Shown: piece by piece, positions 457 to 21,873 of the stretch | How positions within the stretch are numbered: position 1 is the stretch's first letter | Layout: every line of letters starts with the position of its first letter | Virus record (IMG/VR): IMGVR_UViG_3300033076_001180 | Coordinates: 1-26,541 of that record | Origin: a virus | Taxonomy: Duplodnaviria > Caudoviricetes | DNA length: 26,541 nt | Reading direction: 5' to 3' (one strand) | Position numbers and translations under genes: made by a program | The notes under the pieces: generated by a model | What the model saw: the letters and a program-made list of their open reading frames with translations, nothing else | Told to the model about the DNA's origin: nothing | Database searches by the model: none

Positions 457-459
457 TCC

Positions 460-1188: not shown

Positions 1189-1192
1189 TATC

Positions 1193-1594: not shown

Positions 1595-1612
1595 TAAGGC
1601 AAAGGGTGTAAG

Positions 1613-3028
1613 ATGCCTCAGATTCAGTTAGTTCAAGGTGCTTATGAAGCGCGGAGCGTGATCGCAAACGCTCAACGCTGCATAAACTTATACCCGGAAC
1701 TTAACACTAAAGATGCTGAGGTGCCTTACACGCATTACTGCACTCCGGGGCTGACGACTTTAGCACAAGGACAAATTGCTGAAGTTCGTCAGCTTTACAC
1801 TGCGTCGAATGGAAAACTGTTCGCAGTGATCGGAAATTTAGTTTACTACGTGCCTGATAATTTTGTGATGCAGGCGCTTGGTGCTATTAATACACAGTCT
1901 GGTCTTGTGTCGCTTTACGATAATAAGTTTACGCTGATTATTTTGGATGGCTCGACTGTTGGTTGGAGTATTGATTTAACAACTTTAGCGTTTAGTTCGT
2001 TCAGCCCGACGAATTTTGTGGGTGGGAACCAAGTAAGATACATTGATACGTTTTTAGTGTCGAGCACTCAAAATGGAAACATTCAATCGAGTGACTCGAA
2101 TGCCACGACCTATACGGCGTTAGCATCTGCGACGATGAGTGGTGACGCAGACCAGCTGCAAATCATTGACGTGGTGCATAAGGAAATTTGGAGTTTTGGT
2201 CGCCGCACTACAGAAGTCTGGAGTAATGTTGGCGGCTTTCCGTTTCCTTTTGCTCCAATCCCCGGCGTGTTTTTGCAACACGGCATTGCGGCGCTTCGGT
2301 CGCTGGCAAAGTGGGGCCTGAACATTTTCTTCTTATCGCAAGATAACAACGGCGAAGCGTTGGTGATGATGGGCACCGCCTACAAGGCTGACATCATTTC
2401 AACTCCCGCGATCAGCGATGCAATCGGTAATTATGAAATTATCAGCGATGCAATCGGTTTCACTTATCAGCAAGGTTCACATATTTTCTATGTGTTAACT
2501 TTCCCGACTGCCGATAAAACCTGGGTTTATGATTTGTCCACGCAACTCTGGCATGAGCGGGCGTGGCTTGATACTAACGGTCAATTACATCGCCATCGTG
2601 CGAACTGCGTTGCATATGCCTATGGCAAAACGATTTGTGGAGACTGGCAAAACGGAAAACTTTACAACTGGGATTTGCATGTCTACACAGACGACGGGCA
2701 GCCCATTGTGAAACTCCGTTCTTTCCCCCACATTGTAAGCAGCCTTGATCGCATCAGCTATAAACAATTTATGGCTGACGTGGAAGTTGGCACCGACATT
2801 GATCCATCTGATGACCCAATGTTATCGCTTCGCTGGAGTGATAACCGTGGCGTGAGTTTTGGAAACGTCGTGCAGCAATCGCTTGGAAAGACTGGTCAAT
2901 ACCAGACCATTCCTTCTTGGAATAGACTAGGGTTTGCACGAGATCGTGTGTTTGAATTGTCGTGGACTGCTGCCGCAGCGACTGCGTTAAACGGGGCGTT
3001 CATTGATGTGGAGAAAATGGAAACATAA
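1613..3028 (+). CDS. Tail hub, P22 gp10-like packaged DNA stabilization protein
   Basis: 471 aa. QRCINLYPE, TTEVW, FTYQQGSHIFYVLTFP..TWVYD..T.LWHER and LRWSDNRG..F...G..G.Y....WNRLG..RDRVFEL are characteristic of this family. Confidence 0.85.
   Translation: MPQIQLVQGAYEARSVIANAQRCINLYPELNTKDAEVPYTHYCTPGLTTLAQGQIAEVRQLYTASNGKLFAVIGNLVYYVPDNFVMQALGAINTQSGLVSLYDNKFTLIILDGSTVGWSIDLTTLAFSSFSPTNFVGGNQVRYIDTFLVSSTQNGNIQSSDSNATTYTALASATMSGDADQLQIIDVVHKEIWSFGRRTTEVWSNVGGFPFPFAPIPGVFLQHGIAALRSLAKWGLNIFFLSQDNNGEALVMMGTAYKADIISTPAISDAIGNYEIISDAIGFTYQQGSHIFYVLTFPTADKTWVYDLSTQLWHERAWLDTNGQLHRHRANCVAYAYGKTICGDWQNGKLYNWDLHVYTDDGQPIVKLRSFPHIVSSLDRISYKQFMADVEVGTDIDPSDDPMLSLRWSDNRGVSFGNVVQQSLGKTGQYQTIPSWNRLGFARDRVFELSWTAAAATALNGAFIDVEKMET
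2411..2458 (+). repeat. Exact 18-bp direct repeat inside the gp10-like gene
   Basis: ATCAGCGATGCAATCGGT at 2411-2428 and 2441-2458 (ISDAIG twice). Confidence 0.9.
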
Positions 3029-3282
3029 TGCTTCGCGCTCTTGTTCCAAACTCTCTCAAAAATCTAATCCAGCCTGACGGGTCGATCTCTCGGCAGTTGC
3101 AGCTTTTGCTTTCCGCACTTGTGCAGAACTCTGTTCCGACGACTGAGAACTCCACAACTGGAGCGCCGTTGGCGGGGGCAATACTTTTACCGGACGCCGC
3201 GATTGTGCCAAACGGCTGGGTGCAAGTCGGCACTACTGTGACTTTGGGTGGAAACACCTACAAAATTATAACGCTCGTTTAG
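3028..3282 (+). CDS. Small hypothetical tail protein (84 aa) at the tail-needle position
   Basis: TAATG coupling with the gp10-like gene; synteny only. Confidence 0.65.
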   Translation: MLRALVPNSLKNLIQPDGSISRQLQLLLSALVQNSVPTTENSTTGAPLAGAILLPDAAIVPNGWVQVGTTVTLGGNTYKIITLV

Positions 3283-3291
3283 GAGAGTGAT

Positions 3292-4128
3292 ATGGACCCT
3301 TTGACATTGGCAATGATGGGCGGGACCGCGCTCTCCGGGCTTGGCAGTATTTTTGGAGCAGGAACGCAAAGCCGTGCGGCTGGCGCATCTGGGCAAATGG
3401 GGCTGCTTGGCTCGATCATGGCGGCGCAAGCTGCGGAACAGGGCTACCAACGGGCACAAGGTGCGTTGTCGCCGTATAGTTCTGCTGGCACGAAATCGCT
3501 TGATCTTTTGCAGTCGTATTTGACTGGTGATGCTGCGCAGCAAGCTGGTGTCGGCGGCGGCGGTCCCTCGTTGATTAGCACTTTTCAGCCGACACAGGCG
3601 CAGCTTGAAGGCACTCCGGGTTATCAGTGGGCAAGAAGTCAAGCGCTTGGAGCGATGGCGAATAGCGGTGCGGCCAAAGGTTTAGGCACGTCTGGTAATT
3701 TGGTGCAGCAACTCGGCCAGACCGCGACAGGTCTTGGATCACAAACATTCCAGCAGCAACTGCAAAACTATCTCATCCAGAACCAGCAAGCCTACAACAT
3801 GCTTTACGGGCCGTCGCAGTTGGGCGCGAACGCTGCGCAGGGCATTGCATCGGCGGCTACAGGATCGGCGGCGAACATCGGCAACGCAATCATGGGCGGC
3901 GCGAATGCGCTTGGAGCTGGCATCATGGGCGCAGGCAATGCGGCAGCTGCGGGGACACAGGCGGGCTTCGGTGCTGCCGGAAACGCACTATCAATGCCAT
4001 ATTTTGCTGCGAACTTCGGCACAACCGGCAGAGGCGGAACAAGCGGCACAAATTATGCTGGCATCCCGGAAGCGTTGCAGTGGTTTTCAGGTCAAAGCCG
4101 TGGTCCCCTCGGATTTAATGTTGCGTAA
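3292..4128 (+). CDS. DNA ejection/transfer protein, P22 gp7-like
   Basis: SD AGGAG; G/A/Q-rich; hydrophobic MDPLTLAMMGGTALSGLGSIFGA start; PY..AG and TPGYQW...G motifs typical of podovirus pilot proteins. Confidence 0.7.
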   Translation: MDPLTLAMMGGTALSGLGSIFGAGTQSRAAGASGQMGLLGSIMAAQAAEQGYQRAQGALSPYSSAGTKSLDLLQSYLTGDAAQQAGVGGGGPSLISTFQPTQAQLEGTPGYQWARSQALGAMANSGAAKGLGTSGNLVQQLGQTATGLGSQTFQQQLQNYLIQNQQAYNMLYGPSQLGANAAQGIASAATGSAANIGNAIMGGANALGAGIMGAGNAAAAGTQAGFGAAGNALSMPYFAANFGTTGRGGTSGTNYAGIPEALQWFSGQSRGPLGFNVA

Positions 4129-4140
4129 GGAGTCTTAAAA

Positions 4141-5607
4141 ATGGCTGATGGTATTCCTTATCCCCAAGCTCCTTCTTACGGCACGGCTAATCCGCTGCAG
4201 CAAATGGAACAGATGCAGGCTCTTGGGCTTCGCGGCGCGGAAATGCAGCGAGTGCAGCAAGCCGTGCAGCAGCAGGAACTTGTCAACCAATCCAAAAGGG
4301 TGATTGGTGCGTTAGCGCAGCAAAGTTTGGACCCTGCGACGGGTGAACTGGACATGCACAAGTTGCTTGGTGTAGCGGCGCAACACCCGGAAGCGGCGTT
4401 GGGTTATACTGAGTTGGCTCGACAGGCCCTCGACATGGGACTTATTGATGCGCAGCGACATGAAAAGGATTTGGACATTCGGGCGAAAGAATTAGACTTT
4501 GCCTCAAGGGCAATGACTGGTTTAATTGATGACCCTGATATTCAGAATAATACTCCTGCGGCTAAAGGAAAGATTGCAGGAGCGTTCGCACAAATGGGTG
4601 TTGCCACTGGTAAGCCTCGTGAATGGGCTACGCAGCGTCTCTTAGAATATTCTCAGCTTCAAGATCAATATAAAATGAAGCCTGTGCAGTTTGTGAAAAA
4701 TGCACTTACAAATACAGAACGTGGTTTAGCTGCTACACAAGAAGCTCGTGCAAATTTTAAAAACCAGACCGAAGCTGTGCCTGTCACCGAGTATGATCCG
4801 AATACGGGTGAATATGTGCCGACCAGCATTCCGAAGTCGGAATGGCTCAAGCGTCAGGCTGGTCGTGGAAATCTTGTTGGCGTTGGGTCGGCTCCTCCCG
4901 GCGCGGCAAGTAGGCTGGAGGGTTCACCCTCGGACTCTCCAGCCGTCCCTTACGGTGAGCGCAGCGTGGCGACTGGATTGCCTGCTGGTGAAGCCGAACG
5001 ACTCAAAGGGCAAAGCGAAGCGTGGACAGGTCTGCGTAAAGACGTGCAGGAAGGTGCGCAGAATGCGACCGCCAGCATGATGCAGATTGAGGACATGGAA
5101 GGAAAATTAAAAAGCATGGGGTATCGCACGGGCATGTTTGCGCCGGAGCAACTCCAGCTTGCAAAGGCTGCGCTTTTCTTCGATCCGCAAGATCAGTCCG
5201 GTGCGCTCGACATGGTGCTTGGCGCAAAAAATCCGCAGGAAGCTGCCAAAATCATCGGCACCATGGAAGCGTTTGATAAGCAGGCGATCATCCAAAAGAC
5301 TGAAGCGCTGCGCACGGCGATGGGTTCCGCGAACAAACTTACAAACGCTGAGTTCAAAACCTTCCAAGATGCGCTTGTTGGTCTGCGGTCATCTCCGCAG
5401 GGCATTGCTGAAATCTACAAATACATGGAAAAGTTGAACAGGATTGTGCAGGAACGTGCAGCGTTTCTTAACGACTACGAAGATGAACTGGGCCACACGC
5501 CACATGGCCGTGATGCTGTTCGCTTCGAAAAAGAATGGTTCGACCATGTGAAGCGTCATCCTGATCTTTACAAATACACTGGCCCAAAAGCTGAAGGAGA
5601 AAAGTGA
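4141..5607 (+). CDS. Putative DNA ejection protein (second, gp20-like position)
   Basis: SD AAGGAG; 488 aa helical, Q-rich N-terminus; lies between the two other ejection genes. Confidence 0.6.
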   Translation: MADGIPYPQAPSYGTANPLQQMEQMQALGLRGAEMQRVQQAVQQQELVNQSKRVIGALAQQSLDPATGELDMHKLLGVAAQHPEAALGYTELARQALDMGLIDAQRHEKDLDIRAKELDFASRAMTGLIDDPDIQNNTPAAKGKIAGAFAQMGVATGKPREWATQRLLEYSQLQDQYKMKPVQFVKNALTNTERGLAATQEARANFKNQTEAVPVTEYDPNTGEYVPTSIPKSEWLKRQAGRGNLVGVGSAPPGAASRLEGSPSDSPAVPYGERSVATGLPAGEAERLKGQSEAWTGLRKDVQEGAQNATASMMQIEDMEGKLKSMGYRTGMFAPEQLQLAKAALFFDPQDQSGALDMVLGAKNPQEAAKIIGTMEAFDKQAIIQKTEALRTAMGSANKLTNAEFKTFQDALVGLRSSPQGIAEIYKYMEKLNRIVQERAAFLNDYEDELGHTPHGRDAVRFEKEWFDHVKRHPDLYKYTGPKAEGEK

Positions 5608-7958
5608 TGGCGAGGCAATTTGATGTCAGCGTCAATCCGATCCAGACGCTAAAGGCTGGTATCGGTCGGCTGGAAAGCGGAAACAATTATTTCGCCCAAG
5701 GGCCGGAGATTGCACGTAAGAAGGGAACAGATCGAGCGTATGGCAAGTATCAGGTCATGGGCGCGAATATTCCTTCGTGGACGGAGCAGGCGCTTGGCCG
5801 CAAGCTGACGCCTTTCGAGTTCTTAAATAGCCCAGAAGCACAAGAGGCTGTTTTTGAACATCAGATGGGCCGGAACTTGCAGAAGTATGGAAATCTGCAA
5901 GATGCTGCGTCTGTGTGGTTTTCAGGCAGGCCGTTGGCGCAAGCGCAAAAAGCTGGCGCGCATGACGTGAACATTGGCGTTCAGGATTATGTGGCGAGAG
6001 CGCTTGGCGGAAGCCAACAGGCGTCTGGCGGTGTGCAAGTTGCTGGTGGGGATGAGGCGCTGTTTCGGCGGCTGCAGGAAAGGGCTGCAGCGCGTTTGAC
6101 TGGCGGTGTGGCGACTGCGCCGGAACAAGCGGCGGAAACTCCCGAGGCCATGGATGCGTTTGCAAGATTGCGGGAACGCGCAGCACAGCGGATTGCTCCG
6201 ACGCCTGCCCCGCAAGCGACTGCACAAATGACTTCCCCGCCGTTGCCGCCTGTTCCGCAAGCGCCTTCTGCTCCAGCGCCTGCCGTGCCTCAAGATGTGT
6301 GGGGGCCGGGACAGGAATATCTGAATGCTTTGACGTTCGGTGCGTCTCGTGCGGCGTTGCCGTATTCGTCTGAGCAAGTCGCGCAGATGCGGAAGGCTTA
6401 TGAAACGGCCCATCCGTATCAAAGTGCTGGAATGGAAGTGCTGGGCGGCGTGACGCAGGGGCTTGGACTGGCGTTAGCGGGGCCGGAGTTGGCTGGCGCG
6501 GCGCTTGGATCACGGGCGTTGCAAGCCATTCCGGGCATGGGCCGGATCGTTCCTGCGGTGCAAAAGCTGGCGGGGATGCGTCCGGGATATGCGGGGCCGT
6601 TTCCGAGCGGCGGGTATGTCGCACGTCCCGGCATGGTTGAGGCCGGAAAGCGCGTTGCGGCGGGCGTGGGCGTCGGTGGCGCAAAAGGGGCGGGACAGGC
6701 CGCGCTTAACGTCGGCGTCCATCCTGACGTTCCTGTGGGCGAACAAATCGCCCTTGGCGGCACGGTCGGGGCGATGGCCGAACCCGTGGCCCGTTATGTC
6801 GGCGGAATGGCCGGTCCGGCGATGGCTCCCCACATTGAAGAACCTGTCCGCGACGTTGGCAAATTAGCCCAGACTAAGTTCGGCGTTTCGCTCATGCCGT
6901 GGCAGCTTTCCAACATGCCCGCCGAGCAACAACTGGCCTCCAAACTTCTGACTCCCGAACTTGCCGTTAAACAGGCGAAGGAATTTCAGAAGGCTGTTGG
7001 TGATCGGTTTGGACATACCGGACCGTTCACGCCGCAAGCTATCGCCCAAACACGAGACTCCATCGGCCAAAGCATCGGCACAATCGCTCAAGGCACTCCG
7101 ATTGATCTCACATCGCGGGGTTTGGGTCGAGCGGTTCGTCGTGACATCGACGCTCTTGTGCATCAAGCCATCACCACAATTTCTGACCCAGCCGATCTAA
7201 ACAAGGTCCTCCGCACAATTTCAAACGTGGATAACGCGGTTTTCCAAAAAGGACTGCGTGGTGATGTGATACAAAATCTTGTGCAGAAAAATGGCACGAT
7301 CAATCACGGTCTGCCGCCGACCAGCAATGCGCTTTACCAGTTTTACAATACCCAACTGCAACGCATCGCGGATAAAGTGTTTGAGGGTGCGACGATACCC
7401 GGAAAGGCAGATGCTTGGCGTGACGCAAGACGCATGTATAAAACTGCGTCTATGGCGGAAGAAGCTGCGACTGTCGCCGGTATTTTGAACCCGAAAAAGT
7501 TCGCGTCGGCTGCTGCAAAACGTGGAGCAAAAGGTGAGGAACGGGAGTTGCAGGACATCGGTGATCTGATGTTCAACGTAACCGATAAGGGTGAACCGAT
7601 TATTCCGGCTCCGCAACGCGCAGATCGGTTTTGGGAAAATCCTGCCGTGCAAATCCTTGGTGCGGCTGCGGCTCCCTACGCGGCAGGCAGCATGTCCGAA
7701 CTTGGTCAAACCATGCTTTCAAGCATTGGCTTCGGCCCGATGGCGGCAGCTGCCGGTGGCGCAACACTTGCGGCGGCTCGTTACGGTGGCGCGAAAGCAT
7801 TCGAAGCTGCAAAGCACCGCATGTTGACCACGCCTTACTATCAGCGCGCCATCATGCAAGGTGAGGTGCCTTTCGCACACAACGTATTAACTGGCCCCGT
7901 CGCGGTATCGGGGGCGGTAAGCGCTGCGGAAACTCAGAAAGCTCGGAGAAAGAAATGA
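5607..7958 (+). CDS. Large DNA ejection protein with N-terminal lysozyme/lytic transglycosylase-like domain
   Basis: TGATG coupling (ATG 5607; GTG 5604 is an alternative). LESGNNY...AYGKYQVM...W.....G......F...PEAQE..F......KYG....AASVWFSG is a lysozyme-like fold with catalytic Glu in ES. A Pro-rich linker and A/G-rich body follow. Confidence 0.75.
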   Translation: MARQFDVSVNPIQTLKAGIGRLESGNNYFAQGPEIARKKGTDRAYGKYQVMGANIPSWTEQALGRKLTPFEFLNSPEAQEAVFEHQMGRNLQKYGNLQDAASVWFSGRPLAQAQKAGAHDVNIGVQDYVARALGGSQQASGGVQVAGGDEALFRRLQERAAARLTGGVATAPEQAAETPEAMDAFARLRERAAQRIAPTPAPQATAQMTSPPLPPVPQAPSAPAPAVPQDVWGPGQEYLNALTFGASRAALPYSSEQVAQMRKAYETAHPYQSAGMEVLGGVTQGLGLALAGPELAGAALGSRALQAIPGMGRIVPAVQKLAGMRPGYAGPFPSGGYVARPGMVEAGKRVAAGVGVGGAKGAGQAALNVGVHPDVPVGEQIALGGTVGAMAEPVARYVGGMAGPAMAPHIEEPVRDVGKLAQTKFGVSLMPWQLSNMPAEQQLASKLLTPELAVKQAKEFQKAVGDRFGHTGPFTPQAIAQTRDSIGQSIGTIAQGTPIDLTSRGLGRAVRRDIDALVHQAITTISDPADLNKVLRTISNVDNAVFQKGLRGDVIQNLVQKNGTINHGLPPTSNALYQFYNTQLQRIADKVFEGATIPGKADAWRDARRMYKTASMAEEAATVAGILNPKKFASAAAKRGAKGEERELQDIGDLMFNVTDKGEPIIPAPQRADRFWENPAVQILGAAAAPYAAGSMSELGQTMLSSIGFGPMAAAAGGATLAAARYGGAKAFEAAKHRMLTTPYYQRAIMQGEVPFAHNVLTGPVAVSGAVSAAETQKARRKK

Positions 7959-9055
7959 AAAAGGTAACAGGAGCCCTCGCGGCCTTTTTGTATAGCACGA
8001 CATCACTTTGGGGCGCGACATTGCTGCCGAACGGAATGCAGCAATTCATCGACGCAAACGGCAAACCTTACGCGAATGGCAAGGTTTACTTTTACAGCAA
8101 CTATCCGACATGCTCGGTCCTGAAAAATACCTACCAAGATGAAGCAGGCTCAGTCCTCAACACCAATCCGGTCGTGCTGTCGGCCATGGGCACCGCCACG
8201 ATTTTCGGATCTGGCGCGTATTGCCAAGTTTTAAAAGACTCCCTCGGCAACACTGTCTGGACGAAATACACGTCCGACACATCGTCCGCGTCGAACTTAG
8301 GTTGGGGCGGAACGTCTGGCGGCACAGCTAACGCACAGACTGTAACTGTCACGTCCTTCACAGGCACGAATGGGCAATCGTTTTATTTCATCGCAGGGTT
8401 CACAAATACCGGCCCGTTATCTTTAGCTGTTAACGGCGGTTCGCCAATTAGCGTGGTGCGCGACACCCCTACAGGTTCGTTAACGCTTGCTGGTGGTGAG
8501 GTTGTGGCAGGCAATGTCGTCGGCGTCACCTATACATCTGCATCCGGCGTGTTCCACTTAATCACAAACACCACGCAGATCGGTTATGCTGGTGAAGTTC
8601 GCATATTTGCGATGGCGACGTGCCCAAGTGGATGGCTCGCGACAGATGGATCGGCGGTCAGCGCTACGACTTATCCTAATTTGTTTGGCGCAATCGGCAC
8701 AACTTGGGGCTCAAGCGCTGGCAATGTTGTGCTTCCGAATTTCCAAAATCAATTCTTGCGTGGTGCGGGGACAAGCGCGGTCGGCACGTATGAAGCTGAC
8801 ACGTATTTGAACCATAATCATGCTGTGACTGATCCGGGACATCAGCACACATTGTCTGTAAATAGCGACGGCTTCTCTACGGGCTCAGCCGGATCGGTTA
8901 GTCGTTTTGCTACGTTCGGAACGCAGGCTTCTCCGGGAAACACAGTAGGCACCACTTATACTGCGACCACGGGCCTCACGGTGAACACATCGACGACTGG
9001 TGGAACGGAAACGCGGCCCAAGAATTACCGCGTTCAGTTCTGCATCAAGTATTAA
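7955..9055 (+). CDS. Tail fibre protein with phage tail-collar domain
   Basis: ATGA overlap. Virion-attachment-like QFIDANGKPYANGKVYFY...TYQD....LNTNPVVL; collar motif GEVRIFA...PSGWLATDGSAVS...YPNLFGAIGTTWG...LPNFQNQFLRG; C-terminal ETRPKN..VQFCIKY. Confidence 0.85.
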   Translation: MKKVTGALAAFLYSTTSLWGATLLPNGMQQFIDANGKPYANGKVYFYSNYPTCSVLKNTYQDEAGSVLNTNPVVLSAMGTATIFGSGAYCQVLKDSLGNTVWTKYTSDTSSASNLGWGGTSGGTANAQTVTVTSFTGTNGQSFYFIAGFTNTGPLSLAVNGGSPISVVRDTPTGSLTLAGGEVVAGNVVGVTYTSASGVFHLITNTTQIGYAGEVRIFAMATCPSGWLATDGSAVSATTYPNLFGAIGTTWGSSAGNVVLPNFQNQFLRGAGTSAVGTYEADTYLNHNHAVTDPGHQHTLSVNSDGFSTGSAGSVSRFATFGTQASPGNTVGTTYTATTGLTVNTSTTGGTETRPKNYRVQFCIKY

Positions 9056-9084: not shown

Positions 9085-10275
9085 TTAACCTGCCCCGTGC
9101 ATTTCCCTTGCAAGCGGAATGTAAGACTCCGTGCCTGCTTGCCGTTGCAAAATACCAGACTTTTCCATCAAAATCATAATCCGTTCGGCTTTTTCTGCAG
9201 GTGTGCGTTGAGATAAAAAGCGCAAGATTGTTGCGGACGCAATCGGTTGGCGGTGTTTCACGTAAATGCTAAATAGATATTGGAATGTCTCCTCGATCAC
9301 TTGATCGTCGGAGCGCATAATCATATCGCGGAAGATCATCGGCATCAGCGCTTCGATTTCAAGCAACCATCCTCTCGCCCGCTCAACATCCTGCAGCCTA
9401 ATGGCGAGTTCCTCACCTCTCGACATCGCAGCGACCATTGCCAGTTTGACAGCAAAAATCGTTCCGCGACGTGGGATGTAATTGGCGAGTTTCGGATGGT
9501 CTGGAACCGGACCCCATTTATCTTTTCGCCAGCTTTCCATTTCGTAAATAGCTTTCGCGTCCCATTTCATTTCACCATAATAATCCGCGCAATCGTCTAA
9601 CTTTTGCACGAGCCTTTTTTGCTCCGTCTCCATGTTTTTGTATTCACCGAAAAGCGGCACGTCCGGCATGGACGAACTGTAGACCATTAAAAGGCGCGAG
9701 GTCCAACCCATCGTCCACGCAGCTTCCGGGAGCAAGGTGGCGAGAAATCCTGGCTGGGAACCTACCAACAGCGTGGTCATGGGATTGTGAATTTCAATCG
9801 GGTCTTTCAAACTATGTCTGCGTTCTTCTCGATAAGTCGCTTTGTGGTCGAACAACTCGTTAATGATGGAAAGAAAGTTTAGATCGTGAGCGTTAATGAA
9901 CACACCAAGTTCTGCCGCGAACACGAACAAATGATTATAGTCCAGCATTCCTGCGTTGTTCGGCTTGAGCACGGAACGCATGGAGCGCGAAAGGGCGTCG
10001 ATGTATGAAGCAGCCGTGACGCTGTTCGGCGCGATGTGATATTTTTTCGTCGCCTTGAGCAATGCCTCTGCAGGATTGATCGCCTGCGACTTACCGATAC
10101 CGGGCGGCGCGACGAGCATAGTGTAAAGATTTGCGAACTGCGGTCCCGCTTTCGTCATACACCACACACGCTTTTCCAAAGCACCAGAGAGCGTGGTGAT
10201 CGCAGCCCATTTACGAAAAAGTTCTGGTGAAGGACGTTCATCGGTGAACGCCACAAAAGAGTCAACAAAGTCCAC
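9085..10275 (-). CDS. DUF3987/YfjI-like P-loop ATPase, probable replicative helicase
   Basis: GTG start with SD GGGAG. NLYTMLVAPPGIGKS Walker A, atypical Walker B FVFAAE, GWTSRLL arginine-finger-like motif, possible C-terminal winged helix. Directly downstream of PolA. Confidence 0.7.
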   Translation of the reverse strand: MDFVDSFVAFTDERPSPELFRKWAAITTLSGALEKRVWCMTKAGPQFANLYTMLVAPPGIGKSQAINPAEALLKATKKYHIAPNSVTAASYIDALSRSMRSVLKPNNAGMLDYNHLFVFAAELGVFINAHDLNFLSIINELFDHKATYREERRHSLKDPIEIHNPMTTLLVGSQPGFLATLLPEAAWTMGWTSRLLMVYSSSMPDVPLFGEYKNMETEQKRLVQKLDDCADYYGEMKWDAKAIYEMESWRKDKWGPVPDHPKLANYIPRRGTIFAVKLAMVAAMSRGEELAIRLQDVERARGWLLEIEALMPMIFRDMIMRSDDQVIEETFQYLFSIYVKHRQPIASATILRFLSQRTPAEKAERIMILMEKSGILQRQAGTESYIPLAREMHGAG

Positions 10276-10310
10276 CGAAAGGCTCCCAAATAATTAAAGG
10301 CTATGCGCCG

Positions 10311-11792
10311 TTATAGTTTTTGTGAGAGCAGCGGCGTCCGCTTGCGCTCGTCTTTTTTGTTTTTCCATTTGGCGAGGCCGTCTGGATTAGACTTGGGATC
10401 AAAGTTTCCCCAGTTCCATCCGACTTTCGCTTCTCCGGGGACCACAAGTTTGTGATCGCCAGAAACAAACGCGAGATCAAAATGTGAAAGCGCTTCGGAG
10501 ATGATTTCTTGCTCGTCGAGATGTTCAGGATATTGGAAGTAAAGAGCGTCGTGGACTTGGGCAATTAATTGCACCTGCGGCATGTATTTCCAAACGCGCC
10601 AGAGCACAAGGTTTAGCCTCTCCGCCGTCGCGCTCTGTGGCGAAAACGCAATCGCTTCACGTAACGTCGAGTCATCGTTCGCTCGTCCGAAGAACGTGCG
10701 CTCTCGTCCGAAAGGTGTGATGATGCGGTGGGAAGTTTGGAGTTGTTGTGCGACCCATCTATGCCATTTTGGTATTCCAGCGAATCGCTCGAAATAGCGT
10801 TGCTGGAATTGTTCAGCGACGACAACTGGGAGCTTTGCGTGCCTGGCCATGGTTGGAGGAAGTCCGCGATAATTGCTTCCATGTCCGAGCTTTTTCGCCA
10901 TGTCGCGGTAGGTGAGGTGACGATAAAATGGCGTGTCTGCGATTGCGCGGTCGCGCTTGGGATCGTCTGTCCATTCCAGTTCGGGCCAAGCAGTCCGTGC
11001 AACAAGAGTGTGAAGATCGCCACTATAGCAGGCATCCAGATAAGACCAATCACCACAAATGGTTCCCGAAAGCCATCCCACTTCTCGACTCTCTGCCTGT
11101 TCCAAGTCGATCCCGCAGAGTTTGTATCCGGGGTCAGCCACAAACATTGTTCGCAAAGATGACGTGATGTTTTGAAGATTTGTGCCAGTGCCGAACGCAT
11201 TTGTGCTGCTAGAAAAGCGACCTGTTTCTGTGCCTGCAACATTGTAAGAAGTCCTCATGCGACCATCTGAATCAACTTCGGTGTTGAGCACGGAGAGTTG
11301 TTTCACAGCGTCTCGTATAGCCAATATGGTTGCCACCATTGGACGGGCGTGAAAGTAGTTGTCGAGTTTTTCAAGAGCCTCTCGGTCCATGGACAATTTG
11401 CGCTCCCCCTTCTTCGAAGTCCAGATTTCGGGGATTCGCATGTGTTGAAAGAAAAATTCTTGCAGCATCTTTGGGGAATTGGCTTTGAGGGGCTTGTCCC
11501 AGACGGCGTAAGCAAAACGATTAAGGAGAGCAGTAAGACGCTCGATTTCTGCAGTAAGATGCGCGATGCCTTTTTGACGTTCATAACTGTCAATCCGAAA
11601 TCCGCGTTGCATCATGTCCATGACGGGGGCCTGCAAGGCGCGGGTGAAATTGTAAATCTTGGGCGCTGGGCCGATAGCGCGGATTGCGTCGAGAACTTCG
11701 TGCGTGATGCAACAGTCCAGACCGTTGTAAAGCTGCTCGTTTTCTGCGAGCACTACGCCTTCTTGCAGCGTCGATGTGTCGATGATTGGCAT
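10311..11792 (-). CDS. polA: Family A DNA polymerase, polymerase subunit (carries only the ExoIII motif of the proofreading domain)
   Basis: Start reassigned to ATG 11792 (TAATG coupling). NSPKML, GTETGRFSS, NLQNI, motif A DLEQAESR, GDLHT, motif B RDMAKKLGHGSNY, TPFGRER, PQSATA, motif C QVHDA. YNGLD lies near the N-terminus. Confidence 0.92.
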   Translation of the reverse strand: MPIIDTSTLQEGVVLAENEQLYNGLDCCITHEVLDAIRAIGPAPKIYNFTRALQAPVMDMMQRGFRIDSYERQKGIAHLTAEIERLTALLNRFAYAVWDKPLKANSPKMLQEFFFQHMRIPEIWTSKKGERKLSMDREALEKLDNYFHARPMVATILAIRDAVKQLSVLNTEVDSDGRMRTSYNVAGTETGRFSSSTNAFGTGTNLQNITSSLRTMFVADPGYKLCGIDLEQAESREVGWLSGTICGDWSYLDACYSGDLHTLVARTAWPELEWTDDPKRDRAIADTPFYRHLTYRDMAKKLGHGSNYRGLPPTMARHAKLPVVVAEQFQQRYFERFAGIPKWHRWVAQQLQTSHRIITPFGRERTFFGRANDDSTLREAIAFSPQSATAERLNLVLWRVWKYMPQVQLIAQVHDALYFQYPEHLDEQEIISEALSHFDLAFVSGDHKLVVPGEAKVGWNWGNFDPKSNPDGLAKWKNKKDERKRTPLLSQKL

Positions 11793-11905
11793 TAAATCAC
11801 CATTCCGCAAACAACACACAACAACCAAACTGCCAGCGCTTTTTCAGAACCCGTCACAATGTAATACGACATCGGCACAAACGAGATGATAAGGGGTGAA
11901 AGCAT
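11792..11905 (-). CDS. Small hydrophobic protein (37 aa)
   Basis: MLSPLIISFVPMSYYIVTGSEKALAVWLLCVVCGMVI*. TAATG overlaps at both ends, exactly filling the gap between its neighbours. Confidence 0.6.
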   Translation of the reverse strand: MLSPLIISFVPMSYYIVTGSEKALAVWLLCVVCGMVI

Positions 11906-12126
11906 TAGAGCATTCCTTTTGTCTGCAGATGGTTGAACACTCTGCGCCATGCGTAGCTCCTTGCAATACTTACAATGGTAAAAATGGCGGTTAAGGCTAG
12001 GTTTTCTTGGAGAGAAGGGTGTAGGTTGAACCATGGGAAAACCAGCCATTGCGTTAAAAGCGAAGTTAAAAACCCAGAGGCTGTATTTAAAAGCGCCTCG
12101 AGAAGGGAATGTTTGCGAGATTGCAT
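11905..12126 (-). CDS. Small two-TM phage membrane protein (DUF7220-like)
   Basis: MQSRKHSLLEALLN...G.......FP.F.......N......FT..S..RSY..RR.FN is a widespread phage family pattern; ATG immediately follows the upstream TGA. Confidence 0.8.
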   Translation of the reverse strand: MQSRKHSLLEALLNTASGFLTSLLTQWLVFPWFNLHPSLQENLALTAIFTIVSIARSYAWRRVFNHLQTKGML

Positions 12127-13182
12127 TCAGTCATCCTTCTTCATCTCCGTGATCTTTTTCCCGCGCATTGTTTTCCACGCAGGTTCGGAAGTATAAACGC
12201 TGCCTAAAAATCCCAAACCTTTTTGCATTTCAGGGTAAAGAGCGTGATGGTAAAGCATTGTATCTTCGAGACAAGAACGCGGACGATAACCTTCTTTCAT
12301 TAGATATTGCAAGTCGTAAAGTCCGTTCTGGAAGATTTTTGTCACGAACGGGTTTTCCAGAATTGACCGAACAACATTCCTCGCGTCGAGTTCAAGACGT
12401 GGTGTGGCCCAAAAATTTCCGCCCTTGGCTCGATCCCAGAATGGAACGACCATTGCGTTTTCAGCGTCCGCGCTAAATCCTACCATTTCGATCATGCCGT
12501 ATTTTGTTTCGATGTCGCAGGCGCTTTCGGCGCGGATATGCGTGGCGATCCATTCATGGCACTCAGCAATCGTGGGGTTTACCAGAATGCGTCTGGAGGG
12601 CCGTTTGATTTCCGGAAACGCGCTTTCGCGCTTGGCCTTCATTAAATCCGCGAGAGTGATCGGACGGTTGGCCCAATTACGCAAGACTGCCGCAGGGTGA
12701 TAGGTCGGGAGGACTTTGCCGCCAGCAAGAGTTCCTGTTGCCACTGTTCCGCGTAAACTTCCAAGGCCGTTAGTGCCAAGCAAAGCCCAACAAGCTGTAG
12801 CCCCCAGAGCGATAGTGATATGAGGACGAACTTCTTCCAATTCGACACGGAGGCGCTCCAATTCTGAGAGGTATTCAGGCCGCAGGTATTGACCGACTTT
12901 GCCTAAGTGCGGATGTGGGTAGTCCTCACCGCATTCTGCTTTTTTGCAGCAAAGCGCGGAAAGGTCGTTGTTTGGTGGACGCAGCGCCAGCACATTCGTC
13001 AAGAAACAATCACGACGGGAAATCCCAGCTTCTTGCAACATGCGGGTTAGTTCTTGCCCGCTGTAACCTTGGAAGGGTTTGCCGACGATTGACTCCTGCT
13101 CGCCCCATGCCTCACCGACGAGAGCGATCTTTGCGTCTCGCGGGCCGGATGAATGGGCGAATGCTGGCGCTGCGTTGTGCAT
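12127..13182 (-). CDS. Uracil-DNA glycosylase-like domain fused to partial DnaQ-like 3'-5' exonuclease (N-terminal half of split polymerase)
   Basis: Family 4 UDG-like motifs LVGEAWG..E...G.PF.G.SG..L, FLTNV...RPPNN, IALGATA, PTYHPAAVLR. Then ExoI CDIET, ExoII QNGLYD, DTML.HH.LYPE..KGLGFLGS.YT..P.WK. Confidence 0.88.
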   Translation of the reverse strand: MHNAAPAFAHSSGPRDAKIALVGEAWGEQESIVGKPFQGYSGQELTRMLQEAGISRRDCFLTNVLALRPPNNDLSALCCKKAECGEDYPHPHLGKVGQYLRPEYLSELERLRVELEEVRPHITIALGATACWALLGTNGLGSLRGTVATGTLAGGKVLPTYHPAAVLRNWANRPITLADLMKAKRESAFPEIKRPSRRILVNPTIAECHEWIATHIRAESACDIETKYGMIEMVGFSADAENAMVVPFWDRAKGGNFWATPRLELDARNVVRSILENPFVTKIFQNGLYDLQYLMKEGYRPRSCLEDTMLYHHALYPEMQKGLGFLGSVYTSEPAWKTMRGKKITEMKKDD

Positions 13183-13183
13183 G

Positions 13184-13423
13184 TTACTGCTTCTCTACCG
13201 TTAGACCTTTGACCAACCACATGCAGCCTTCTTCGAAACACTCGATTGCTTTCGAAAGTAGACGGGTTTCTTCATCGCTGATTGTATCAATGTTTTCAGG
13301 TATGAAGTCCCATGTGAAGTCGATCAACTCTGCAGCTTGCCGTTTCGCTTCTTTTACCTCTGCCTTTTCAGTCGGGAGGAAAGATTTGCGAACGAGCTTT
13401 TCGCCGTGAGTGCGCGTTAGCAT
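13184..13423 (-). CDS. Acb2/Tad1-like helical hairpin protein (79 aa), candidate immune-signal sponge
   Basis: Start reassigned to ATG 13423 (TAATG coupling). V.E.K...AELID...ETRLLSKAIECFEEGCMWLVKGLT resembles the R..A.A.T..EEA.MW motif of Tad1/Acb2-like proteins. Confidence 0.55.
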   Translation of the reverse strand: MLTRTHGEKLVRKSFLPTEKAEVKEAKRQAAELIDFTWDFIPENIDTISDEETRLLSKAIECFEEGCMWLVKGLTVEKQ

Positions 13424-13854
13424 TAACGATTTTCCTCTGCGACAATCGCCAACAGCAGCAGGCTGTAAACCACCATGTCGTCGATGCGGTCGCGGATCGG
13501 TTCGGAGCGTGCACGATTTTTGTTTTCGCGCACGTCCTTCACATACTGCGTGATCGTGTCGATGTGTTTGCCAGCAAGAAAGAACCAAGCGGTTGACATC
13601 GGCACACCCTGCTGATCCGACAGTCTGCGGAAGTTCGCCAAAATGTCAGCCTTGTCACCATACTCAGCGTTCTTCGTGGCGAATAGCTTTTCCGCACGCT
13701 TCATGGCGTCTGCGATGATGGTGAGCTGCGGGTTGCTATTGGCGACAGGTGTGGGGACTTTGTTCATTTTCGGCTCCGTGGTTGGCTTAACGTCAGCGAT
13801 GGTTTCGTAAAGTTCGTGGATGTTGATGCGTTCAGCTAGATTTTCCTGCGTCAT
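13423..13854 (-). CDS. All-alpha NTP pyrophosphohydrolase-like protein (DUF1599/Nmad1, MazG-like)
   Basis: Start reassigned to ATG 13854 (SD AAGGAG). KNAEYG...DILANF...KH...EPIRDRIDDMVVYSLLL pattern. Confidence 0.6.
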   Translation of the reverse strand: MTQENLAERINIHELYETIADVKPTTEPKMNKVPTPVANSNPQLTIIADAMKRAEKLFATKNAEYGDKADILANFRRLSDQQGVPMSTAWFFLAGKHIDTITQYVKDVRENKNRARSEPIRDRIDDMVVYSLLLLAIVAEENR

Positions 13855-15328
13855 TATTTTGCTCCTTTTGCATAGACGATGCTTTCCGTAACACTCGCGA
13901 GTGATTAAGGGCTCGCCTCGCGTTCGCCACGTATTCATCGTTAATCTCGAGGCCAATTACGTGATCGGCTCCGAGAGCTTCTGCGGCCCGCAGCGATGAC
14001 CCACCACCGCATGTCGGATCGAGAAATCTGGTATTGCTATCTACAAACATTTGAAGAAAGTGCTTGAGCACTGGTTCGGGTTTGGTGTGTGGGTGATGCT
14101 CCTTGTTTGTGGGGGATGCGATGGCGTTGCTCACGGGCTTAACAAGCAGTCTGTCCTCACGAGAAGCGATCAGCGCCGTTTCGTAAATTCGTCTGGGTTC
14201 GCGCTTGGGGTCCGGCACTATCCCAACATTATCGCTCTTTACCCACACAAGCGGGAAGTTGCAGAACGAGAGCGTCGGGGCCAAATCTGCAAACATTTCC
14301 AAAGTCCGCGATTGGATTTTAATGTCGCCAGACAGCCAAAACACAAGGTGCCCGGAGTGCGCCATGACACGATCCAGATTTGCGCACAGACATTCGATCA
14401 ATTTCACATAAACGTCCGCGCTGTCGTCATAGCCGCTGGTCGTGCGCTTTCCAGACCATGCGCCGCCGAACACGTTCACGCCATAAGGAAAGTCGCAGTG
14501 GATCAAATTGAAAGGCTCGCCGCGATAGGCTGGAGCCCAATCCAAAAAAGACTCCTGTAAAATGGACTGGTCTGCGGGGGTGATAAGCGGTGCGGTGCGG
14601 GCGGACTTTGGGGGGCCGTCCGGCGCGTGGCCGGTATGGGTGGTTTTTTGGCCGGTGGGTGCGTCGGCAAGGTCGTCGGAATGCCCGGTTTTTTGGTCCG
14701 TGGTTGCGTTCAATAGGTCGTCTAGGGGGTCTATACCGGAATTGTTTTCAAGGGCGTCATTAGCCGCCTCTGTGGCGCTATGCAAAAGGTTGCTAACCGC
14801 GTCCGCCGCGACCCGTTCATCCTCTCTGGAGATAAAGTTATACGCTCGTGTCGCTGACTCCATGTTCCGCACGTTATCCCGGTGGAGTTCCTTGGCGACA
14901 CGGCAGCAGCGCTGGACCCACGCAGGACTATACCCAAGATTTTCTGAGGTCTTTGTGTAGTTCCAGGTGTCACCGTTTTGCTGCGTCAACACTTCATGGA
15001 TCGTCGCCATGGCGATGCACTGGTCCTGCCAGCCTAAATCCTTGCGACGAAGATTTTCTTCGAGTTCCACCACGCGCTGCTCAAGCGGGGAGAGATCGTT
15101 CAACTGCCGAGCGGGAATGGTTTCGAGGTTTAATTGGCGCGATGCCGTGTAACGCCGTTCACCTGCGATAAGTTTGAAAGGCTGGTTCGCCGGACCAACT
15201 TCCGCCATCACAATAATCGGCACCAGCACCCCGTTGCGCGGAATGCTTTCTAAAAGGTCGTCAATAATGATTTCTTTTCGCTGGCGTGACCCACGGTCAA
15301 TCCAGATGTCTTTAAGGGAAATGTCCAT
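13832..15328 (-). CDS. ParB-like domain + HTH fused to beta-class amino (N6A/N4C) DNA methyltransferase
   Basis: ATG 15328 (SD AGGA). SI...GVLVPIIV, LIAGERRY, EENLRRKDL, HTH-like segment, low-complexity linker, LIHCDFPYG (motif IV variant), HPHTKP, FLDPTCGGGS (motif I), GLEINDEY. Confidence 0.85.
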   Translation of the reverse strand: MDISLKDIWIDRGSRQRKEIIIDDLLESIPRNGVLVPIIVMAEVGPANQPFKLIAGERRYTASRQLNLETIPARQLNDLSPLEQRVVELEENLRRKDLGWQDQCIAMATIHEVLTQQNGDTWNYTKTSENLGYSPAWVQRCCRVAKELHRDNVRNMESATRAYNFISREDERVAADAVSNLLHSATEAANDALENNSGIDPLDDLLNATTDQKTGHSDDLADAPTGQKTTHTGHAPDGPPKSARTAPLITPADQSILQESFLDWAPAYRGEPFNLIHCDFPYGVNVFGGAWSGKRTTSGYDDSADVYVKLIECLCANLDRVMAHSGHLVFWLSGDIKIQSRTLEMFADLAPTLSFCNFPLVWVKSDNVGIVPDPKREPRRIYETALIASREDRLLVKPVSNAIASPTNKEHHPHTKPEPVLKHFLQMFVDSNTRFLDPTCGGGSSLRAAEALGADHVIGLEINDEYVANARRALNHSRVLRKASSMQKEQNNDAGKSS

Positions 15329-15347
15329 GGTCAATCCTGTAAGGTGA

Positions 15348-15392: not shown

Positions 15393-15827
15393 TTACTCGC
15401 CCTTCACGCTCTTGATGTTGTTGCGCGGCGGATCGTCCGGGCGCTCCGGGTTGAAACGCTGCGTGATATACGCGAGGACGCTCTGCCCGACTGCCTCCGG
15501 GATCAGTTCGTCAAACGTCGAACCAGCAGTTTTCAGACCAAGTGACTCCAGAAAATCTTTCAGACGAAAGCGCGCGTCGGGGGTGAGATAAAAGTCCGTG
15601 GACATTTTACGAGCGGAAAGGTCGATGTCTGCGAGATCCTTGGGGTCAACGTCATCGCTGGCGGAATGGAACTTGAGAGCAAAGCGGACATAAGGAGTTT
15701 TGTTTTTGTTGTTGTCGCCGTATTCAAAGCTCGCGATTGTGCCATGATAAGTGCCTTCGGGAAGCGCAGCAGGAGCCTTTACTTCGTCAAGGTTTACGGA
15801 AAGGAGGTCTTTAAAGTTAACAGCCAT
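15393..15827 (-). CDS. DUF669-like putative ssDNA-binding protein
   Basis: ATG 15827 (SD GGAG). LPEGTYHGTIASFEY...KTPYVRFALKF...FRLKDFLESLG is DUF669-like; follows the AAA ATPase as in Sak4-SSB modules. Confidence 0.6.
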   Translation of the reverse strand: MAVNFKDLLSVNLDEVKAPAALPEGTYHGTIASFEYGDNNKNKTPYVRFALKFHSASDDVDPKDLADIDLSARKMSTDFYLTPDARFRLKDFLESLGLKTAGSTFDELIPEAVGQSVLAYITQRFNPERPDDPPRNNIKSVKGE

Positions 15828-15881
15828 TTTATACTCCATAGTGATAAACCCCGTGAGGGGCTGGTATTAGGACCTTTGGTC

Positions 15882-16685
15882 CTAATTTCGGACCGCTGCG
15901 AAATAGTCGGCCAAGCCAGACTCTAGCGGATAAGACTGCGCCACTTTCGATGGCGCGGTATTCTTGCACTCAATCGTGCCTTGAGAAGTTGTGAAGATTT
16001 GCCGTTTAAGGTTCTGCCCGCGACCAGATGACTGCGCGAGCAATACCGTGTTGAAATATCGGCCCACTTTCGGAGGTAGAGCTTTTCCCAAAGTGTTCGG
16101 ATAGTAACGCTCCGGGCCACTTTCATCCCCCATTGGCTTGATGTGGCAGTTGATTATGACATTGCACTTTACGGACTCATCGTAAAGCATTCGCAAAAGG
16201 TTCTCGACGAGGACTTGAGCAAGGCCCCAGTCGGACTGGTGCGGGTGCTGCCCGAGGCGGCCATTCATAGCGAGGATGTAGGAAAGCGCTGCGTCGCTCA
16301 ACATGGTGAGGGAGTCGATCACAAGCACCGTGTTGCTGTCCCATGTGGTGATCGCGCCAAGGTTTGTGTCGCCGTCTTTCCAGTCACCCAACATGCCGGT
16401 CGTGCGCTGCCAAACGCTGGCCTTCGCCGGGATCAATTTGCCGCCGACGTTTTTCATGGGCTCCGTGATCGTAACGTAGTCCACGTTTGTAATGCAGTCT
16501 TTTTTGTAACGGCCCGATGTAAGGAGGTCACGCAGCACGTCCACGCCGTTGTCGAGGTCAAGGATGCGAATTTTGTAACCGGCATCTGCAAGTGAAGCGA
16601 GCGCTCCCGTCTTGCCTGATCCGCTATCGCCTACGAACAAAAGTTTTGTAGTGTCTGCTGAATGATGATCTTTAAGCGATGGCAT
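15882..16685 (-). CDS. AAA_24/Sak4-like P-loop ATPase (putative recombinase)
   Basis: Start reassigned to ATG 16685. KLLFVGDSGSGKT Walker A, RILDLDNG, LVIDSLT Walker B, DWG, NVIINCH, VGRYFNTV. Confidence 0.75.
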   Translation of the reverse strand: MPSLKDHHSADTTKLLFVGDSGSGKTGALASLADAGYKIRILDLDNGVDVLRDLLTSGRYKKDCITNVDYVTITEPMKNVGGKLIPAKASVWQRTTGMLGDWKDGDTNLGAITTWDSNTVLVIDSLTMLSDAALSYILAMNGRLGQHPHQSDWGLAQVLVENLLRMLYDESVKCNVIINCHIKPMGDESGPERYYPNTLGKALPPKVGRYFNTVLLAQSSGRGQNLKRQIFTTSQGTIECKNTAPSKVAQSYPLESGLADYFAAVRN

Positions 16686-16821
16686 TTGCGAAAACCTTTT
16701 CGATTTGTTTTGCGAGTGCAAAGTTCGGTGTTGTTGCGACTGCAATCCAGTTTTGTGATTTACGATCAAACACTGTGACGATGTAACCGTCATCAGAATG
16801 GCGGGCGATGTGAACGCTCAA
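16672..16821 (-). CDS. Hypothetical protein (49 aa)
   Basis: TTG start overlapping the nuclease TGA (TTGA), SD GAGG; MSVHIARHSDDGYIVTVFDRK...; fills the gap to the ATPase. Confidence 0.55.
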   Translation of the reverse strand: MSVHIARHSDDGYIVTVFDRKSQNWIAVATTPNFALAKQIEKVFANAIA

Positions 16822-17762
16822 ATGTCGCCTCGCACTTTGAGAGGGTCCCAGATGCGCTTGGTGAAATCTGCACGAAGCCATTCGTGGCGGACAGACGGCG
16901 GGAGGCCGCAGATTTTACGGAACGGACAACCACCATACATGCCGCAGGCTTTGTCATTCATGGGCCAATAATTCTGCGCCGCGTAAAGTTCTGCCGTGGC
17001 GATATATTGCCCAAGATCGAAATACCATTCTTCCAGCCCAGACTCCGTGCGCGGAACGACGCCTCGTAAAAAGCGCGTGAATGTCTGCGCAATCTGCGCA
17101 CCGTCCACAATGATCCCTTCGATCTGCACGTTGTAAACAATCTTGCCTGCGATGGCGTAAAGCGACATCTGGTTGTCTGGCGTGAACTTGTCGAAGAACG
17201 ACTGGTTGATTGTGCTTTTTGTGGTTTTCCGGTCGAGCACGAAAGCCTTGTCGTTTAGTGTTGCCAAACGGTCAAGGTGTCCGCACAAAAGAATGCTTTC
17301 GCCTGCGCGGGAGGTGTAGCCTGAGTCAAACCTAAAAGATAGTTCAACAGCTGGCTTGCCGTTGGCGAGGCGCACGGTTTCAATCGGGTCCTCTTTGAAC
17401 TGATCCAAATACCACACGACCGAACGAAGCAGCGTCATGCGATTTTTGTTTGGGTCGTCTGAAAGCCATGGACGATTTTTTTGCTCGTCCCATGTGATTG
17501 TCAACACATATCTAACGACTTCACGCAGCGCATCGTCATAGCCCATGCCGCCAAAACGCAGATGATCGTAACGCTCAAGCGCGGAGTGAAAATGCAAACC
17601 GAACGTCAAATGCACAGAAATTTCACGCGGCTGCCAGCCTTCGAGGATGGAAAGCTGGTAGTATCTCGGGCACGTTTTAAACGCCCCGATTGACGTGGAG
17701 TCCCACGCGAATTGAAAGCGCGGAGTGATAAGCGAAAGTGAATTGTTGACGACTTCTGACAT
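16818..17762 (-). CDS. PD-(D/E)XK nuclease, RecB/Cas4-like with four-Cys Fe-S staple
   Basis: S.....FKTCPRYY, FG..FHSALE, AVELSF, GHLDRL...VLDRKTT, QMSLYA, C....GCPFRKIC. Confidence 0.85.
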   Translation of the reverse strand: MSEVVNNSLSLITPRFQFAWDSTSIGAFKTCPRYYQLSILEGWQPREISVHLTFGLHFHSALERYDHLRFGGMGYDDALREVVRYVLTITWDEQKNRPWLSDDPNKNRMTLLRSVVWYLDQFKEDPIETVRLANGKPAVELSFRFDSGYTSRAGESILLCGHLDRLATLNDKAFVLDRKTTKSTINQSFFDKFTPDNQMSLYAIAGKIVYNVQIEGIIVDGAQIAQTFTRFLRGVVPRTESGLEEWYFDLGQYIATAELYAAQNYWPMNDKACGMYGGCPFRKICGLPPSVRHEWLRADFTKRIWDPLKVRGDI

Positions 17763-21523: not shown

Positions 21524-21873
21524 TAGAAGTCTCCGAGTAGGTCGTTAAGGTCGAGCGTGACAGGCGCTGGTGTGGGGGTGGACGGTGCAAGCGGCGTCCA
21601 GCCAAACTCACGTTCCGCCACGCCTTCCGGGTCGGCAAGCCATCGTGACCAGAACGCCGCAAAGTCATCGGAGCGAATGACGAGCACTTTGCGAGTCGAA
21701 CGGTTCGGGCCACTCGAGAAAAATCCCGAGACTTCAATCGTGCTCCCGTCGTTGATGGGCGAGCAGTAAAGTCCGGGGATGATGGAAAGTCCGCCGGGGT
21801 TGGATTCGACGCGAAACGCGGGGAGCCCGGAGATACGCGGACGTTCCGGCGCAAGGAAATGTAAAGCGCTCAT
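21523..21873 (-). CDS. Hypothetical protein (116 aa)
   Basis: ATGA overlap with the helicase stop; SD AAGGA. Confidence 0.7.
   Translation of the reverse strand: MSALHFLAPERPRISGLPAFRVESNPGGLSIIPGLYCSPINDGSTIEVSGFFSSGPNRSTRKVLVIRSDDFAAFWSRWLADPEGVAEREFGWTPLAPSTPTPAPVTLDLNDLLGDF

Follow-up and report, generated by a model that had tools for sequence, protein, structure and literature searches.

Can the proofreading site of a family A DNA polymerase (PolA) be shared between two proteins? The question is raised by a 26,541-nucleotide stretch of viral DNA (Duplodnaviria; Caudoviricetes; positions 1 to 26,541 of IMG/VR record IMGVR_UViG_3300033076_001180; hereafter the window), an uncultured contig that forms a linear virus record, 48% complete. 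On its minus strand, a uracil-DNA glycosylase (UDG)-exonuclease-polymerase is encoded as two genes, A and B, cut between the ExoII and ExoIII motifs of the exonuclease, and the two proteins likely form a constitutive heterodimer with a composite proofreading site. The genes and exonuclease motifs concerned are listed here; the split and fused representatives are defined below.

12127 to 13182, minus strand: gene A, 351 residues, a family-4 UDG followed by the N-terminal three quarters of the 3'-5' exonuclease (ExoI and ExoII)
12505 to 12519, minus strand: ExoI motif CDIET (D223 and E225, equivalent to Klenow D355 and E357), in 73/73 split and 8/8 fused representatives
12313 to 12327, minus strand: ExoII motif NGLYD (D290, equivalent to Klenow D424), in 73/73 split and 8/8 fused representatives; the aligned stretch is QNGLYD
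12127 to 12177, minus strand: new C-terminus of A, the invariant W336-K337 and then a tail ending K-x-D/E-D/E-stop
11905 to 12126, minus strand: first inserted gene, a hydrophobic DUF7220 (Pfam) protein of 73 residues, whose ATG directly follows the stop of gene A
11792 to 11905, minus strand: second inserted gene, a hydrophobic open reading frame (ORF) of 37 residues with a TAATG overlap at each end
10311 to 11792, minus strand: gene B, 493 residues, the ExoIII helix followed by a family A polymerase with its thumb, palm and fingers
11766 to 11792, minus strand: new N-terminus of B (M-x-I-I-x-T), missing in fused relatives and part of the predicted A/B interface
11715 to 11729, minus strand: ExoIII motif YNGLD (Y22 and D26, equivalent to Klenow Y497 and D501), on helix 18-38 of B

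Exonuclease motifs divided between two genes

Residues were mapped by profile alignments to the solved Klenow fragment, whose chain numbering we take to be offset by +323. By these alignments and Pfam, gene A carries a UDG-like domain, ExoI and ExoII and then stops (TGA, 12127-12129) 61 residues past ExoII, as the first-pass annotation of the window had read it; ExoII in gene A and ExoIII in the separate polymerase gene were likewise found where it had placed them, while for ExoI the motif was right and the coordinates (12506-12520) were one base off. The two proteins match successive stretches of one PHROG profile (phrog_17, 477-799 and 808-1232) and total 844 residues. Gene B is assigned to family A by its Pfam match (DNA_pol_A, E 2e-34) and by the Foldseek match of its model to KlenTaq (E 2e-22), and it ends about 30 residues beyond the last palm strand.

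The DnaQ-like ExoI, ExoII and ExoIII residues are all present, but only across the two chains. Among the 73 split representatives, D223, E225, Q285, N286, D290, D307 and K337 of A, as well as Y22, D26, D229, R296, K300 and D415 of B, are invariant (73/73). Since catalytic residues would be expected to decay otherwise, their retention on different chains suggests that the site still forms, and an exonuclease site that still forms is the simplest explanation of conserved ExoI and ExoII on A with conserved ExoIII on B. Both halves were also taken as intact at first sight. The ratio of non-synonymous to synonymous substitution (dN/dS) between the window and eight in-register close relatives (L098, out of register, was dropped) is 0.05-0.09 for gene A, 0.06-0.08 for gene B, 0.13-0.15 for the DUF7220 gene and 0.10-0.15 for the 37-residue ORF. 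All four ORFs are under purifying selection.

The split clade has gained two new ends that fused forms do not have, the M-x-I-I-x-T start of B and the K-x-D/E-D/E tail of A. The tail (window 12130-12162) is of fixed length, at 13-19 residues counted from the Trp, with K348 in 69/73, and fused relatives instead have K-D-E-G-K directly after the invariant Trp. The start of B is most likely ATG 11792 (493 residues) and not TTG 11828, because the M-x-I-I-x-T start is conserved and the in-frame stretch upstream is not.

Genes A and B lie 334 bp apart, and this distance is filled by the two inserted genes. From A through the DUF7220 gene and the 37-residue ORF to B, the junctions read TGA-ATG, TAATG and TAATG, forming a stop/start chain. 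The halves had been described as translationally coupled, with the inserts overlooked; this stands only as a relay through two intervening genes, and not as direct coupling.

Breadth and age of the split

Searches of viral contigs, of Genome Taxonomy Database (GTDB) contigs and of annotated phages yielded 214 sources, the window being one of them: 186 split, 10 fused, 17 with one half only (mostly contig ends) and one unrelated. With some contigs counted repeatedly and split-type proteins used as queries, these counts are no estimate of prevalence. From 161 complete rows, 81 representatives were taken (73 split and 8 fused). The 73 split representatives form one clade beside the eight fused ones (FastTree support 0.979; 834 columns; rooted on vir526), and none of them is re-fused. 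Their sequences are about 40% identical, yet ExoIII stays on B and ExoI and ExoII stay on A, and the break falls in every case after the invariant W-K and before the ExoIII tyrosine. Fused relatives link the ExoII side and ExoIII by a short W-K-D-E-G-K loop, and a search that started from one of them showed 86 of 88 sister-group loci to be joined in a single chain. The recurrence of the breakpoint in related phages, which the first-pass annotation had put forward as a check, is therefore found across divergent members of one clade. The split is real, old and widespread across a large phage clade.

The same split is present in the cultured Caulobacter phage Kuura, with two other genes in the gap and only one annotated DNA polymerase. 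The phage reaches a titre of about 2x10^10 pfu (plaque-forming units) per mL, and its paper mentions just 'a DNA polymerase' (PMC9959647). Eighteen loci lie on contigs of metagenome-assembled genomes (MAGs) of unrelated taxa and are probably binned phage DNA, so no host was inferred from them. In two sister-group members (L073:5197-5200 and L307:3505-3508), the chain is interrupted within this loop and a plausible start codon follows; these are possible independent fissions, though each is seen on a single contig and may be an error.

The distance between A and B ranges from -4 to 2762 bp, in all frames, and is at most 40 bp in 11/73 representatives. Its contents are unrelated between lineages, at 115 ORFs in 85 clusters. 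Pfam domains among 119 scanned proteins were DUF7768 (in 14 of the 73 representatives), DUF1937 (8), DUF7220 (5) and HNH_3 (4), and MazG, dCMP deaminase, FkbM methylase and NrdR-ribbon genes were seen once each (example loci of the slot are L043, L050, L056 and L044). HNH_3 was further matched in the gap of four of five extra close relatives scanned, one of them under the curated cut-off, and homologues of the 37-residue ORF occur in 10 further close relatives. The gap of the window, which holds the DUF7220 gene and the 37-residue ORF only, contains no homing endonuclease. HNH genes, which might point to a homing endonuclease as the source of the split, are in the minority among the inserts and may have come in after it.

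Predicted assembly and competing explanations

The monomer model of A reached a predicted local distance difference test (pLDDT) of 93.5 and that of B, which includes helix 18-38, 92.4. Foldseek matched A to family-4 UDGs, the phiLo polymerase and Klenow, and B to KlenTaq. When the two chains were modelled together, the complex scored 0.83 against 0.01 for the best of three controls, a mark reached by 116/157 solved complexes and by 2/215 mismatched pairs. The runs share at least 90% of their contacts (about 220), with partner pLDDT of at least 86. The predicted interface comprises B1-9, B16-37, A193-203, A221-225, A283-289, A304-318 and UDG residues 148-149 and 169-174; contacts of lowest error join B27, B30, B33 and B34 to A221, A283 and A308, and B27 touches both A221 and D223. 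The ExoIII helix of B is thus seated on the ExoI/II strands of A in the model. The prediction shows that A and B are compatible, not that they bind; from the register only, we infer that the four carboxylates would converge on two metals.

In the mechanism that these data suggest, a single ancient fission would have struck a single-chain ancestor in the surface loop that runs from the invariant W-K to the ExoIII helix. A and B would fold separately, and helix 18-38 of B (with Y22 and D26) would dock on the ExoI/ExoII strands of A (D223, E225 and D290) and restore the two-metal site, with the new N-terminal strand of B enlarging the interface. The UDG is likely positioned as in single-chain UDG-PolAs and would excise template uracil. 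After the split, the junction may have behaved as a neutral slot gathering small replication-module genes, sometimes HNH endonucleases. A constitutive complex is favoured because the element that B would supply is a core helix of the exonuclease fold.

The UDG part of this mechanism was examined by alignment.

12625 to 13149, minus strand: UDG domain of A, about residues 12-186 (Pfam UDG match, residues 12-172)

Residues E24, E30, F37, N63 and H162 of A align with Thermus thermophilus UDG E41, E47, F54, N80 and the HP motif; the GE(A/G)PG motif, the uracil-pocket Glu, Phe and Asn, and the HP motif are presumably the functional residues of family 4. Among the split representatives, E24 is kept in 71/73, N63 in 69/73 and H162 in 71/73. 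The Pro of UDG motif A is replaced by W26 in gene A (Trp in 47/73, Pro in 11/73 split representatives). Family-4 UDGs require four cysteines for a 4Fe-4S cluster; in gene A the N-terminal CxxC is absent and the position of C84 is L67. The best Protein Data Bank (PDB) matches of the domain were the T. maritima and T. thermophilus UDGs, and the phiLo polymerase (9qhs) was also matched. By analogy with the phiLo polymerase, the UDG of A is probably catalytically active and would remove template uracil, a step made weaker by the Trp that mostly replaces the motif-A Pro and by the absent Fe-S cysteines.

Several points weigh against the heterodimer with a composite site. Binding of A to B and the activities of both are predictions, and the complex score may reflect the likeness of the halves to solved single-chain PolA structures. 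D290 is absent from the listed interface residues. UDG activity is uncertain for the reasons just given (W26 for Pro in 47/73; no Fe-S cysteines), and the conserved acidic tail of A has no role in the proposed mechanism. The tree has a small outgroup (the eight fused representatives) and was built before later fused loci were found. The A and B trees agree in part only (patristic r 0.82), with conflicts to the other tree in 2/17 well-supported splits of A and 6/27 of B; L210, an A with a frameshifted tail, was excluded from this comparison and from the covariation analysis. In an inter-chain covariation analysis over 84 pairs, three of the ten strongest couplings and ten of the hundred strongest lay in the predicted interface versus a 3.1% baseline; it had shared ancestry uncontrolled and many implausible top pairs, and was not used as evidence. 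The shared breakpoint, the invariant residues and the complex prediction nevertheless make the heterodimer, as originally proposed, likely.

A more dynamic arrangement was also considered, in which assembly is regulated: B would replicate without A, and the ratio or timing of the two would tune proofreading and uracil excision, yielding a mutator state or free UDG. It would fit the persistence of the split through a deep clade with none of 73 re-fused, the confident fold of B modelled alone (pLDDT 92) and intervening genes that could uncouple the amounts of A and B; differential regulation was also raised as a possibility for the split polymerase of phage S-SBP1 (PMC10201439). A scan of the coding strand for sigma-70 sites only, however, found no promoter-like site in 11600-13600, nor was a minus-strand terminator found there, and the stop/start relay, together with overlaps or gaps of at most 40 bp in 11/73 representatives, favours equal co-production. 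The gap content that could do the uncoupling is unrelated between lineages (85 clusters, 115 ORFs), the predicted interface is large, and PolAs are stated to need the exonuclease domain for stability (a passage of PMC10201439). Regulated assembly is accordingly considered unlikely, and the switchable fidelity or UDG coupling suggested in the first-pass annotation is left unsupported by a single stop/start-chained run of genes. The same low probability is given to a bolder version, a two-component replicase that carries proofreading and uracil excision on a detachable subunit, with no more than the last catalytic helix on the polymerase chain, where the subunit ratio would switch proofreading on or off or release UDG, the acidic tail would act as a gate and the loop would be a recurrent fission point in the His-B3 family (B3 being a polymerase position described below), as the two further sister-group breaks might indicate.

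The acidic tail also underlies the idea that A is a self-sufficient UDG-exonuclease, the tail supplying the missing carboxylate, or that A and B work largely apart. The tail is conserved in sequence and length, lies outside the predicted interface and could loop back; yet it is disordered in the monomer model (residues 341-351, pLDDT <50) and unplaced in the complex, the ExoIII helix that packs the core of the fold is not on A, and Y22 and D26 of B are invariant in 73/73, as fits a catalytic role in trans. This reading is very improbable. Slightly less credit still can be given to the reading that A and B end up in a single polypeptide, whether because RNA is spliced, ribosomes shift frame or hop, or the proteins are trans-spliced. 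The 334-bp gap of the window is intron-sized and inteins occur elsewhere in B of some relatives, but the spacing varies between -4 and 2762 bp, falls in every frame and holds unrelated sequences, the inserted genes are themselves under purifying selection, and both new ends are conserved extensions missing in fused forms. Rfam gave no match at E≤1 in 9500-14000. A ends K-x-D-D and B starts M-x-I-I-x-T, and neither an intein domain (Pfam) nor a terminal His-Asn with a Cys/Ser/Thr junction was found at these ends as inspected in the alignments, in line with the intein termini reported missing at the outset. Three RNA-labelled runs yielded short contigs only (0.05-0.06 word share), none of which spans the gap or holds an A-to-B joint, and which are uninformative. 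The other runs have small shares, and no habitat is claimed from them. That the split is an assembly artefact or a decaying pseudogene has practically no probability: the window is an uncultured, partial contig, but the same split recurs in 185 other loci, including an isolate genome, under strong purifying selection, and these independent assemblies refute an artefact.

Known polymerases and the surrounding locus

The constitutive heterodimer was compared with known systems. The first split PolA in print appears to be that of S-SBP1-like cyanophages (Czernecki et al. 2023, PMC10201439; also PMC12695635). Like A/B, the S-SBP1/S-TIP37-like enzyme of these T7-like cyanophages is a family A polymerase from two genes that is predicted to reassemble into the single-chain architecture. 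It is cut at the exonuclease/polymerase domain boundary after ExoIII, leaving the nuclease whole on one chain: the translated S-SBP1 exonuclease gene ends after YCIQD and so retains ExoIII near its C-terminus, whereas A/B is cut inside the active site. A/B further differs in having a UDG, His and not Tyr (as in T7-like enzymes) at B3, and often genes between the halves. In CCPol-MP, a PolA chain whose exonuclease is reduced to its last helices is likewise completed by a partner (PMC10201439, in its account of that system), but MP is an unrelated beta-barrel and the nuclease is not restored, whereas A is the true N-terminal exonuclease part and all catalytic residues are present across the pair.

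Single-chain UDG-PolAs (N4-like, SPO1-like, SP15-like phiLo and YerA41) share the order UDG (family 4)-exonuclease-polymerase, UDG motifs A and B and a UDG predicted to touch the polymerase; A/B differs from them in being two chains. N4-like PolAs have lost the UDG catalytic residues, which A keeps. SP15-like enzymes (1175-1306 residues) carry large inserts and a C-terminal domain of about 80 residues, both absent from the A+B pair. For phiLo, the UDG is described as excising template uracil ahead of synthesis (bioRxiv 10.1101/2025.03.26.645540, in summary). Closer single-chain relatives are those of Microcystis phage Mel-JY34 and vir526, both unstudied; Mel-JY34 has the same neighbourhood, a methylase upstream and DUF3987 downstream.

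Outside family A, the split ribonucleotide reductase NrdA of phage Aeh1 and the split gp43A/gp43B of Aeromonas phages are essential enzymes in two polypeptides that reassemble without splicing and have foreign genes in the gap. Split gp43A and gp43B are reported to co-purify and to be active, and split Aeh1 NrdA is active (PMC2988022, in brief); its new terminal tails are described as essential for function (PMC3045599, in brief), and they recall the new conserved ends of A and B. These cases concern a ribonucleotide reductase and a family B polymerase in few phages, whereas A/B belongs to family A, is clade-wide and is without a homing endonuclease in the gap of the window. A full-text literature search, for the most part of openly available papers, did not turn up any PolA or UDG-PolA described as cut between ExoII and ExoIII. 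The cut within the proofreading site is a new form of split family A polymerase. It surprises moderately, as both polymerases in pieces and active sites put together from two chains are known from earlier cases.

If so assembled, A and B indicate that a family A polymerase can have its two-metal proofreading site divided between chains and keep it so across a large, old phage clade. The split point would then be natural and tolerated, and could serve conditional-fidelity or complementation designs; Kuura and its Caulobacter host make the heterodimer idea testable. There is also a gap in annotation: database entries for A read 'uracil-DNA glycosylase' or 'hypothetical', and those for B describe a PolA that lacks an exonuclease. 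Searches with the two halves gave 5046 and 4048 database matches at E≤0.001, unrelated UDGs and PolAs included, and thousands of database proteins are probably half-enzymes.

The polymerase motifs of gene B are as follows.

10548 to 11108, minus strand: motif A D229 (11106-11108) to motif C H414-D415 (10548-10553), both catalytic aspartates intact
10869 to 10907, minus strand: motif B, R296-K300-H304-Y308, with His at B3 (the Klenow F762 position)

The B3 residue (H304, window 10881-10883) is His in 73/73 split and 7/8 fused representatives, the eighth being a gap. The Klenow F762 position governs discrimination against dideoxynucleotide triphosphates (ddNTPs). Phe, Tyr and Leu are the only B3 residues named for PolAs in the relevant text of PMC10201439, and a literature search for a His variant gave nothing relevant. 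Intein-like insertions were seen in relatives of B (L102:5001-7337; P0151, P0183, P0206, P0231 and P0179); they either follow GHG within motif B or lie at the TGR motif. Close homologues of B of about 780-840 residues were considered as re-fusions and rejected, as all five inspected (669-841 residues) start like B and carry such insertions.

The replication module occupies the minus strand of the window, and podovirus-type virion genes the plus strand. One base pair upstream of gene A (13184-13423, minus strand) lies a gene for a 79-residue protein whose hairpin domain is of the Acb2/Tad1 type (Pfam E 7e-7, above cut-off); the protein may counter host defence as a signal sponge. Farther upstream (13832-15334, minus strand), one gene joins a ParB-N domain to an N6/N4 DNA methylase, and in the fused relatives L002, L003 and L307 a gene like it comes before the polymerase. 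Directly after B (9085-10275, minus strand) is a stand-alone DUF3987 protein (PHROG 'primase', P-loop), as also follows the fused polymerase of Mel-JY34; no separate primase catalytic domain was recognised in the window. The module is rich in repair genes: at 15393-17762, 21870-24079 and 26243-26539 (minus strand) are a single-stranded DNA-binding (SSB)-like protein, a Sak4-like annealase, a PD-(D/E)XK nuclease, a UvrD helicase, a HIRAN-like protein and a partial pyrimidine-dimer glycosylase. Among the genes of this half genome, none for thymine modification was seen. On the plus strand (127-9055), genes for an adaptor, head closure Hc3, an ejection protein and a tail-collar fibre converge on the replication module.

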